Shown here piece after piece: positions 14,791 to 21,240 of a DNA stretch of 64,000 nucleotides. Numbering within the stretch: position 1 is the first letter of the stretch; each line of letters begins with the position of its first letter. The translations under genes were made by a program, and so were the position numbers. Source of the stretch: Promethearchaeota archaeon (GTDB lineage: Archaea; Asgardarchaeota; Lokiarchaeia; Sigyniarchaeales; SOKP01); the NCBI GenBank assembly GCA_011364975.1, contig RDOE01000001.1, positions 1 to 64,000 on the forward strand, read 5' to 3'. The notes under the pieces were generated by a model. That model had not been told where the DNA came from and ran no database searches. It saw only the letters and a program-made list of their open reading frames with translations.

Positions 14791-15636
14791 TTATAATAAT
14801 AAAAATTGCTGGAGAAAAAACATATCCAGATTTAAATCATTTAGTAATTTCTTGTTGTTTAATATGTATGAATAAATCTTCTCATCACTAAAGTATTTAT
14901 AGCATAAGTTTTTTCCCTTGACCTCTTTGAATGTTTTGATAATTCCTCTCAATATTGCTTTTAAGTATTTAATTACTAAATCTTTATCACATTTAATAAC
15001 ATTTATATCAACTATGTTTATCCATGATTCTTTTGAGAATGTTATGTCTTTTAGATCTTTTTGATCTTTACATTCTGCCTGATTTTTAATATTATTATGC
15101 TCTTTTTCGATACGATCGAGTATTTCATTTTTAGATTTACTATACATTTTATTATCAATGATATTTCTAAGCATGATGAATATTTGCTGAAATACCCCTA
15201 AGATATCAAAAAAGTCAGCAACCTCTGTTATTGATTCTACTTCTTCCCATTGGCTATAATAATCTTCTAATACTTTTAAGAAAGGGACATATACATTTAA
15301 ATTACCATCCCAAGATTTACCTTTCTTTTCCCAAAGCATTTTATATTCTCTAATAAAGGATTCCTTTATAACATTTAATCTCCCCAATAATAATTCTGTT
15401 TTAACATTTTTCTTGTCGGCTGCAACAAAAAGTAAATTATATCCTGGTTCTAAAATATAAATCCATCTTAAACCGCCCATTTCTATAGATTCTAAGGATT
15501 GTTGAAATTCTGCCATAGAAAAATGATAAAATGCTGTTAAAAATCCAGAAACAATATTTTCATCCGCATCTGTTTTTAAAAATGATTTATACAATATTTT
15601 TGTTCCAGAATCACTTTCTAAAACCCAGATATTCAT
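14791..15636 (-). CDS. longin-like domain protein (Asgard type)
   Basis: N-terminal SG..I...IVSGFLTAF..FS...LESIEMG...LLFVA pattern typical of longin domains. Confidence 0.65.
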   Translation of the reverse strand: MNIWVLESDSGTKILYKSFLKTDADENIVSGFLTAFYHFSMAEFQQSLESIEMGGLRWIYILEPGYNLLFVAADKKNVKTELLLGRLNVIKESFIREYKMLWEKKGKSWDGNLNVYVPFLKVLEDYYSQWEEVESITEVADFFDILGVFQQIFIMLRNIIDNKMYSKSKNEILDRIEKEHNNIKNQAECKDQKDLKDITFSKESWINIVDINVIKCDKDLVIKYLKAILRGIIKTFKEVKGKNLCYKYFSDEKIYSYILNNKKLLNDLNLDMFFLQQFLLL

Positions 15637-15971: not shown

Positions 15972-16497
15972 GTGAGTGAAAGAGGAAAAGTCGTTGTAAA
16001 GGCTCTCGTCACTGGTGGAAGCGCTTCTGGTGGTCCACCTATAGGACCTGCTGTCGGCCCTACTGGCATAAACGAAAACTAATTCGGTTTTCGATGTAAA
16101 TATTAAAGATGTGGTCGATGAGGTCAACAAGAAGACAATGATGTTCAAAGGATTAACAGTTCCTGTGAGGATAGAATGCGATACAGAAACTAAGAAGTTT
16201 GAGATATTCGTAGAAACTCCCAGCACAGCATCTTTACTGCTAAAGGAAATGGGTGCTGAAAAGGGAAGCGAAAGTGCAGCAGAGAAAAAGATTGGTAATC
16301 TTACTTTAAAGCAGATAATAGAGGTGACAAGGTCAAAAAAGGACAAATTCTTAGATAGAACATTTAAGAATGCAATTAAGACCGTATTAGGGACTGCTTT
16401 ATCCATCGGAGCTACGGTAGAAGGAGAGAATCCAAAACTTATTCAAAAGAGAATAGATGAAGGGCAATATAATGAACTATTAAATGAGGAGATGTAA
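15972..16497 (+). CDS. rpl11: 50S ribosomal protein uL11, split: join(15972..16071,16100..16497), 165 aa
   Basis: Exon 1 MSERGKVVVKALVTGGSASGGPPIGPAVGPTGI; exon 2 NIKDVVDEVNKKT...GT..S.G; exons are in different frames, separated by a 28-nt insert. Confidence 0.92.
16072..16099 (+). other. putative BHB (tRNA-type) intron in rpl11 mRNA
   Basis: Central helix GCAU/AUGU, two AAA bulges, intron stem CGAAAAC/GUUUUCG; contains in-frame TAA at 16080-16082. Confidence 0.85.
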
Positions 16498-16499
16498 AA

Positions 16500-17228
16500 C
16501 TGAAGCTGGACGATAAATTATTAAAAAAATCATTAAATGTAGCAATAAATTTTTCCCTTCAAAAGAAAGAAGGTTTTAAAGAGAAAGTAAGAAAGTTCGA
16601 TGAATCAATTGATTTCATTATCAATCTTAAAGATTTAAATCTAAATGATCCTAAGCAAAGAATTGACAAAGAGGTCATCTTACCTAATAATGTACTAAAA
16701 ACAGAAAAACCCGATGTATGTGTTATTGCTTCTGATGAGATCTTAATGGAAGCACGCAATATAGGACTTGATGTTTTAGATCTGGATGGATTAGTCAAAT
16801 TAAATAATGAGGAGAAAAAATATAAAAAGAAGTTTGTAAAAAAGTACGATTACTTCATTGTAGAAGATAAAATGATGCCAAATGTAGCTCGATATTTAGC
16901 GAGGTTCCTTGGACCTATAGGAAAAATGCCTAAACCATTTCCAAGCGGATATGGGATAATATCTACTCCAGATGATTTAAGAACTGCTGTTGATCGTTAT
17001 TTAAAAATAATAAGAATTCAATTGAAAAAGCAACCCTCAATTCAGGTGAAGATCGGGAAAAAATCTATGGAAAAGGAAAAAATCTTAGAGAATATGAAAG
17101 CGGTTGTTGAATATATTGCAGATCAAATGCCTCATAAATATAATAACATAAAATCAATTTATCTAAAAACCACAATGGGACGCCCTGTCAAAATTGATGA
17201 ACAATTCTTAAAAGGTGTTGAGGTGTAA
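16500..17228 (+). CDS. rpl1: 50S ribosomal protein uL1 (CTG start)
   Basis: RKFDESIDFIINLKDL and LGP.GKMP motifs; in-frame TGA at 16485, GAGGAG SD, then CTG 16500. Confidence 0.9.
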   Translation: MKLDDKLLKKSLNVAINFSLQKKEGFKEKVRKFDESIDFIINLKDLNLNDPKQRIDKEVILPNNVLKTEKPDVCVIASDEILMEARNIGLDVLDLDGLVKLNNEEKKYKKKFVKKYDYFIVEDKMMPNVARYLARFLGPIGKMPKPFPSGYGIISTPDDLRTAVDRYLKIIRIQLKKQPSIQVKIGKKSMEKEKILENMKAVVEYIADQMPHKYNNIKSIYLKTTMGRPVKIDEQFLKGVEV

Positions 17229-21138: not shown

Positions 21139-21240
21139 CGCAGACAGAGGGATTCGAACCCTCGAGTGCTTGCGCACACTGGCTTTATGGGAAAACCCTA
21201 CACTCCAAGCCAGCGCCGTACCGGGCTAGGCAATGTCTGC
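21139..21240 (-). tRNA. tRNA-Ser(GGA) with an intron of about 18 nt at 37/38
   Basis: GCAGACA/TGTCTGC acceptor stem, CTGGC-TTGGAG...A-GCCAG anticodon arm, long variable arm, TTCGAAT loop. Confidence 0.9.

Follow-up and report, generated by a model that had tools for sequence, protein, structure and literature searches.

A putative bulge-helix-bulge intron in the reading frame of the ribosomal protein gene rpl11 of a lokiarchaeon

The subject of this analysis is a 64,000-nt stretch of DNA (the window) from a Promethearchaeota archaeon, positions 1 to 64,000 of contig RDOE01000001.1 in assembly GCA_011364975.1 (contig C106 of the genome referred to below as G000), and in it the gene rpl11 for ribosomal protein uL11. 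This gene, the only rpl11 of the genome, is interrupted by 28 nt (16072–16099; all coordinates are positions within the window unless another contig is named) that are highly likely to be an intron of the bulge-helix-bulge (BHB) type, spliced from the mRNA by the endonuclease EndA and by RtcB, the enzymes otherwise engaged in tRNA splicing. On the plus strand the rpl11 open reading frame (ORF) opens at GTG 15972, codes for ...PPIGPAVGPTGI and closes at TAA 16080–16082, and the +1 frame is open for the remainder of L11, from 16072 to the stop at 16495–16497. The Pfam profile L11_N is split in the same manner: its positions 1–26 fall on residues 9–34 of the first piece and its positions 27–58 begin with the first residue at 16102. 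When 16072–16099 is excised the profile becomes gapless and the product has 33 + 1 + 131 = 165 amino acids. An initial annotation of the stretch, made from its letters alone, had noted the stop, the change of frame and the 165-residue product, all of which are confirmed by the reading frames and by the now contiguous profile. Its further claim, that the rpl11 mRNA would be spliced by the tRNA machinery, draws support from the singleness of the gene, from DNA of four studies, from the pairing kept in relatives, from three more insert sites and from the encoded EndA and RtcB.

That a stop codon and a change of frame interrupt rpl11 could also mean that the gene is broken or that the insert is an artefact of assembly, but we attach practically no probability to this. 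The genome (3.74 Mb in 200 contigs, 99.25% complete, G+C content 30.6%) holds no rpl11 but this one, and the protein sequence encoded by both exons is conserved. In four public DNA runs (X1, X2, X15, and X17), which belong to four studies, contigs cross the insert without an indel and without a joint, so that the presence of the insert in DNA data, for which the initial annotation had asked, is borne out. It should be noted that the assembly itself may derive from one of the four runs, and therefore at least three are counted as independent. The strain in run X17 differs from the window at 8 positions, none of them inside the insert, and shows T>A at 16064 in the outer helix. In addition, inserts are found in 55 species-level genomes, as described below. 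The same run X17 also contains a low-depth contig (record 8 on window 16097–16131) with an rpl11 gene that lacks the insert and that belongs to a co-occurring relative.

Inserts of this kind are not confined to one genome. The relatives considered, identified by way of the adjacent uL1 protein, are metagenome-assembled genomes of Promethearchaeota/Lokiarchaeia, the latter group now bearing the name Promethearchaeia. In an initial search of 41 related genomes by tblastn with both gene pieces, species of the window's genus showed inserts at several different places within the first ~35 codons. The survey of the family extended to 135 genomes, of which 127 matched, and 125 rpl11 5′ regions were aligned, of which 117 belong to the family and 8 to other families of its order; five loci were excluded from the alignment because a contig end truncated them or because their match began at residue 4. 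Inserts of 28–38 nt, one to three in each gene, are present in 55 of the 117 family genes at four sites spanning ~60 nt, which are in gene order A, B, D, and C, whereas 62 family genes are without insert and the 8 genes of the order's other families carry none. Carriers are distributed over the genera as follows: 22 of 33 in the window's genus, 24 of 49 in g22, 7 of 8 in g21, the single gene of g19 and one of two in g17. No rpl11 insert was found in eight further genera of the family (24 genes), and in a phylum-wide search of 400 genomes all frames outside the family were open over at least 157 amino acids among the matches listed. On a tree of the exonic rpl11 DNA (125 rows, quick search) the minimum number of changes is 16 for site A, 14 for site B, 23 for site C, and 4 for site D; because the gene is too short, these counts are upper bounds only and give no direction of gain or loss.

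The inserts at all four sites obey one cutting rule, with one fixed register per site: the cut is placed after base 2 of each of the two 3-nt bulges that flank a 4-bp helix. When it is applied, the conserved stretch ...GGPPIGPxVGPTGINIKD is open in every one of the 125 aligned genes. Among the 68 distinct inserts the central helix is fully paired (4/4) in 20/20 sequences at site A, 25/25 at site C, 6/6 at site D, and in 9 at site B. If the 3′ strand is slid by 1–3 nt, the mean number of pairs is at most 3.0 (A), 1.9 (B), 1.64 (C), and 2.5 (D). The outer helix has 7 bp at site D and 5–6 bp at site B, formed in both cases from the palindromes of Gly-Pro codons, and the inner helix of site C is strong (8 bp, 88.5% of the cells paired). 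Indeed, in all loci the hot spot, codons 15–35 of rpl11, overlaps with repeated, self-complementary Gly-Pro codons (GGN-CCN), and these repeats may be the cause of the tolerance of this region for inserts.

For site C, of which 28 rows with 25 distinct sequences were aligned, 90.9% of the cells of the structure are paired, as compared to 25–40% for the slid controls. Seven pairs, all of them in the inner helix, are changed on both sides, and in four of five measures none of 500 shuffles matched the observed values. For example, in one relative (L090) the A-U-rich stem is wholly swapped for a G-C-rich one with the geometry unchanged. Covariation reaches into the exon at site A, where the wobble base of a Gly codon changes together with its partner in the intron: AGGG/CCCU is found versus UGGG/CCCA or CCCG (A-U to U-A or U-G). 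Synonymous exon sites are invariant among the carriers, and at site C the codons GGC-ATA precede the insert in 26/26 registered carriers versus 12 of ~89 non-carriers. The comparison of relatives for presence and absence of the insert and for covariation, which the initial annotation had proposed, shows 55 carriers among 117 genes and a covarying stem. With respect to the window itself all the pairs that it had drawn are present, but the inner stem comprises 8 bp rather than the 7 bp given there, closed by a loop of 5 nt, and the central helix GCAU/AUGU holds one G-U pair. Introns of group I or II and other curated RNA families were considered and rejected: the insert is 28 nt long and has no match in Rfam, which at gathering thresholds finds in the whole window only a tRNA at 21139–21240.

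There are several points that weigh against the interpretation as spliced BHB introns. When the window sequence is folded alone, z is −1.47 and 14 of 200 shuffles fold equally well. The BHB fold itself comes at a small cost, with −9.0 kcal/mol (outer helix not counted) versus −10.7 kcal/mol for the minimum free energy (MFE) fold. The statistical weight for a BHB motif comes from the relatives and not from the window's own fold, and there the shuffle statistics overstate independence because the rows are related; the four sites are more independent replicates than the alignment rows. At site B, 8 of the 17 distinct sequences have 3/4 pairs in the central helix, which is one mismatch. The outer helix is absent at site A, and at site C it consists of 1–2 weak pairs, of which the U-A pair is missing in 9 of the 25 distinct sequences. 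Sites A and C are relaxed BHB forms, and thus the motif of the window, with its weak outer helix, is relaxed rather than canonical. A loose genome scan, which required 3-nt bulges around a 4-bp helix and at least 4 bp in the inner helix and whose hits were then filtered for the joining of ORFs and for codon usage, did recover the rpl11 insert; ORF-joining motifs were, however, found at 1895 of 339,183 places (0.56%) versus 34,377 of 6,340,682 (0.54%) for helix-less decoys, and when the minimum for the inner helix was raised to 6 bp the ratio (118 versus 1775 decoys) was ~1.2-fold. Since there is no enrichment over the decoys, the motif alone does not predict introns. Finally, of the sequencing runs listed for the locus, 20 in 7 studies are DNA runs and none is an RNA run.

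It also speaks against splicing that in all 25 distinct sequences of site C a path with a single shift of frame is formally open. Translational recoding would consist in a +1 shift within 16072–16079 or in a hop of the ribosome from the Asn codon at 16071–16073 to 16099–16101. Hopping has a precedent in gene 60 of phage T4, and AAC and AAU flank the insert of the window. A shift would, however, add 9–10 unconserved residues within a conserved loop, and a hop would find no matching take-off and landing codons in three relatives in which bulge 1 is AAG or AAU (L010, L036, and L044). At the other sites stops are present in both frames in 14 of 20 distinct sequences (A), 11 of 17 (B), and 3 of 6 (D), together 28 of 43, and these inserts cannot be rescued by frameshifting. 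Recoding moreover leaves the invariant 4-bp helix, the geometry of the 3-nt bulges and the compensatory changes in the stem unexplained, and we consider it very unlikely. The conserved RNA structure is likewise unaccounted for if uL11 were made as two polypeptides (36 and about 128 amino acids) that assemble on the ribosome, the second of which could start at GTG 16111. The break points vary, there being four sites, and genes with three inserts would give tiny fragments, which makes this alternative hardly credible.

For splicing by EndA, the relaxed form of the motif is of importance, since relaxed motifs are reported, in the accessible text of the source, to be cut only by endonucleases of broad specificity (PMC5829648). 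The window's genome contains two genes for tRNA-intron endonucleases (PF01974). The catalytic EndA (200 amino acids, contig C126) has residues that align to Y125, H133, K164, R157, W183, and K44, the Lys in the loop associated with broad specificity, of EndA from A. pernix, the roles of which are taken from what is available of PMC3241643. In the second protein (205 amino acids, contig C191) Tyr is replaced by Phe and the His is lost, which fits a function as structural subunit. Asgard archaea are reported, in the same accessible text, to have an (αβ)2 EndA bearing an insert in loop L1 (PMC5829648), and the predicted pair matches this type. RtcB is encoded on contig C124 (553.7 bits).

From these components we infer the following course of cleavage, ligation, and circularization. 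In the transcript the exonic GCAU 16066–16069 would pair with the intronic AUGU 16094–16097, so as to present two 3-nt bulges on opposite strands, 4 bp apart, beside the 8-bp hairpin of the intron. The heteromeric EndA composed of the catalytic and the non-catalytic subunit would then cut after 16071 and after 16099, RtcB would ligate the exons, and the intron would be set free, probably as a circle. The joined mRNA would yield the normal uL11 of 165 amino acids and the unspliced mRNA a peptide of 36 residues only. If the mRNA is spliced in this way, the intron would be a tolerated passenger and not a regulator, and it would persist as Gly-Pro codons (GGN-CCN) favour the flanking helices.

The same chemistry could instead serve as a regulatory gate, in which splicing of the first gene of the L11-L1-L10-L12 cluster would tie the output of ribosomal proteins to the activity of EndA and RtcB or to the load of tRNA precursors. 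Within the cluster's first gene the intron begins after ~100 nt, the six insert sites in mRNAs (the four in rpl11 and the two described below) all fall within the first ~40 codons, and exon bases are held fixed for pairing in the carriers, which would suit a gate. Yet 62 of the 117 family genes and all 8 genes from other families manage without an insert, its site and number differ between close species as would be expected of passengers, and nothing ties splicing to L1, L10, and L12, none of which is interrupted in the loci examined. We consider a gate improbable.

Inserts of the same type are predicted in two other genes. These came from a census that makes no use of the motif and in which the window's genome (G000) was compared with a 1.2-Mb portion of G085 (3.34 Mb), a complete genome of the family. 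The REL ORFs with matches (445 + 835) gave four flagged pairs and the 1717 own ORFs with matches six. Two of the flagged pairs are convincing inserts, one in a CoA-transferase gene of G000 and one in a GHMP-kinase gene of G085. The others were rejected: one REL pair is the antisense shadow of the CoA-transferase, three are neighbouring genes with a fused counterpart in the other genome, and four are weak or divergent matches. As an example of adjacent genes, those in G000 on contig C149 47135–49502 and in G085 at about 1056382–1058722 are separated by a stop, a ribosome-binding-like stretch and an ATG, versus fused ORFs of 790–810 amino acids in the paralogues or orthologues of the other genome; they were dismissed as introns and are considered a case of gene fusion or fission.

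In the insert of the CoA-transferase the central helix GUAG/CUAU is fully paired (4/4) and bulge 1 is AAA. The insert is found at the same place in 7/7 orthologues of the genus, whereas the orthologue of G085 is without it. Conversely, the GHMP-kinase orthologue in the window's genome (contig C134) is uninterrupted. The proposal of the initial annotation to look for BHB motifs in the other genes of the genome has therefore had a divided outcome: the scan for the motif was not enriched, but the census gave one further insert in this genome, that of the CoA-transferase.

There is some indication that the inserts are related to each other. UCG occurs in 53 of 65 distinct rpl11 insert cores versus ~12 expected from shuffles, usually as the end of the pentaloop plus the closing G, and loops that end in UC and are followed by G are common at all four rpl11 sites and in the CoA-transferase inserts. 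A 13-mer is shared by the site D insert of L050 and the CoA-transferase insert of L268, the maximum in shuffles being 10; the other longest common substrings between insert sites were not above those of shuffles. The shared loop mark and the 13-mer hint at a common origin. It is conceivable, though we would put it forward only tentatively, that the inserts of rpl11, CoA-transferase, and GHMP kinase belong to one mobile family of BHB mini-introns of ~30 nt, marked by a loop with UC followed by G, which settle near mRNA 5′ ends where the exon (e.g., by Gly-Pro palindromes) supplies the flanking helices. The tRNA-splicing enzymes would in that case sustain a true but sparse mRNA-splicing system on which an essential ribosomal protein depends. 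Among the tRNA introns called by ARAGORN no obvious common hairpin was found.

A BHB intron in the pre-mRNA of cbf5 from Crenarchaeota was reportedly described by Watanabe in 2002 and by Yoshinari in 2006. As of 2020, cbf5 is given in the accessible text of PMC7714728 as the only case within a coding region, to which one in a 5′ untranslated region (UTR) was added, and a structural paper from 2025, in its accessible portion, cites only three cbf5 papers for pre-mRNA. The cbf5 intron of Crenarchaeota (Yokobori 2009, PMC2738675, available text), which is excised by the tRNA-splicing endonuclease, resembles that of rpl11 in being a short BHB insert in a coding region, in organisms with hetero-oligomeric EndA, and in its patchy distribution by lineage. 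Unlike cbf5, rpl11 is a host gene for a ribosomal protein in Asgard archaea (Lokiarchaeia), has four sites in ~60 nt with up to three inserts per gene, and is known in this respect from genome sequence alone. The intron of HVO_1309 in Haloferax volcanii (PMC7714728, accessible text) is cut by the archaeal splicing endonuclease, as predicted for rpl11, and is also close to the 5′ end of its mRNA; it lies, however, in the 5′ UTR and was demonstrated by circular RNA sequencing (circRNA-seq) and by cleavage in vitro, whereas the rpl11 insert lies within the reading frame and was seen in DNA.

The tRNA introns of Asgard archaea, which may be non-canonical or multiple, are also short, as far as described in the available parts of PMC11291895 and bioRxiv 10.64898/2026.10.13.758758; they occupy sites capable of forming a BHB and are patchy by species. 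In these parts the studies cover tRNA genes only, and the term "mRNA" is absent from the main text of bioRxiv 10.64898/2026.10.13.758758. The window's genome fits this picture, since in its 99% complete assembly ARAGORN finds only 15 tRNAs genome-wide, of which 9 have introns; probably most tRNA genes are hidden by multiple or non-canonical introns. A tRNA-Ser(GGA) gene with an 18-nt intron is present in the window itself (21139–21240, minus strand), where it is found by Rfam and by ARAGORN in intron mode and missed by ARAGORN with default settings. Full-text literature searches, whose scope excluded supplementary files and subscription journals, yielded no description of BHB inserts in rpl11 or in any mRNA of Asgard archaea.

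In eukaryotes the mRNAs HAC1 and XBP1 are cut at stem-loops by IRE1 and joined in a reaction of the RtcB type, without a spliceosome, as a switch regulated by stress. Cleavage of an mRNA by a protein enzyme and RtcB-type joining would be common to both systems; in rpl11, EndA would take the place of IRE1, and regulation is not part of the case. With the rpl11 inserts a known mechanism very probably gains both a new lineage and a new host gene, what is unusual being the hot spot with four sites and at least one further mRNA predicted to be spliced. The gene concerned is essential and highly expressed, it encodes a ribosomal protein, and it is affected in dozens of species of the archaeal group closest to the eukaryotes. 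If splicing does take place, enzyme-catalyzed splicing of mRNA would belong to the regular course of gene expression in Asgard archaea, and the family would offer a natural series of gains and losses in which the arrival of introns can be traced. Gene callers that mark such genes as broken or split would then need correction, which matters for marker phylogenies based on uL11.

Table 1. Elements of the interrupted rpl11 gene, and sites of inserts in rpl11 and in two other genes
Feature	Position	Strand	Details
rpl11 exon 1	15972–16071	+	GTG start, 33 codons + base 1 of Asn codon; ORF, L11_N 1–26
Putative BHB-type intron (site C), 28 nt	16072–16099	+	contains stop of upstream frame (16080–16082); Pfam profile gapless once removed
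rpl11 exon 2	16100–16497	+	last two bases of Asn codon, 131 codons, TAA 16495–16497; L11_N 27–58, Ribosomal_L11 2–69
Outer helix (weak), 5′ strand	16064–16065	+	pairs with 16101–16102 (U-A, G-U); 82% of cells paired
Central helix, 5′ strand GCAU	16066–16069	+	exonic; pairs with 16094–16097; 100% of cells paired in 25 distinct sequences
Bulge 1, AAA	16070–16072	+	predicted 5′ cut after 16071; AAA 21, AAG 2, AAU 2 of 25 distinct
Inner hairpin	16073–16093	+	8-bp stem 16073–16080/16086–16093, pentaloop AAUUC 16081–16085; MFE fold; 7/8 pairs changed on both sides
Central helix, 3′ strand AUGU	16094–16097	+	intronic; AUGC 16, GUGC 5, AUGU 4 of 25 distinct
Bulge 2, AAA	16098–16100	+	predicted 3′ cut after 16099; ANA in 25/25 distinct
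rpl11 site A	in Ser codon after Thr-Gly-Gly		22 instances (one cut); 28–38 nt
rpl11 site B	after Pro-Pro-Ile		17 instances; 30–36 nt
rpl11 site D	after Pro-Ala-Val		6 instances; 28–30 nt
rpl11 site C	the window's site		28 instances, 25 distinct; 28–31 nt
CoA-transferase III insert, 31 nt	G000 contig C43 9037–9067 (L261 538–568)		after codon 37; Pfam profile 2–33 before, 35–366 after
GHMP-kinase (mevalonate-kinase-like) insert, 31 nt	G085, L222 about 15300–15340 (minus strand)		between Gly-Glu and His-Phe-Val-Val, after ~codon 16; central helix 3/4

Downstream of rpl11 in the window are the genes for uL1, uL10, and the stalk protein. In the uL1 gene (16500–17228, plus strand) there is no ATG, GTG, or TTG ahead of 16746. 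At 16500–16502, where 18 relatives show ATG, GTG, or TTG directly before a Lys codon, the window has CTG, which is preceded by a GAGGAG-like stretch and which is probably either a CTG start codon or a recent point change.
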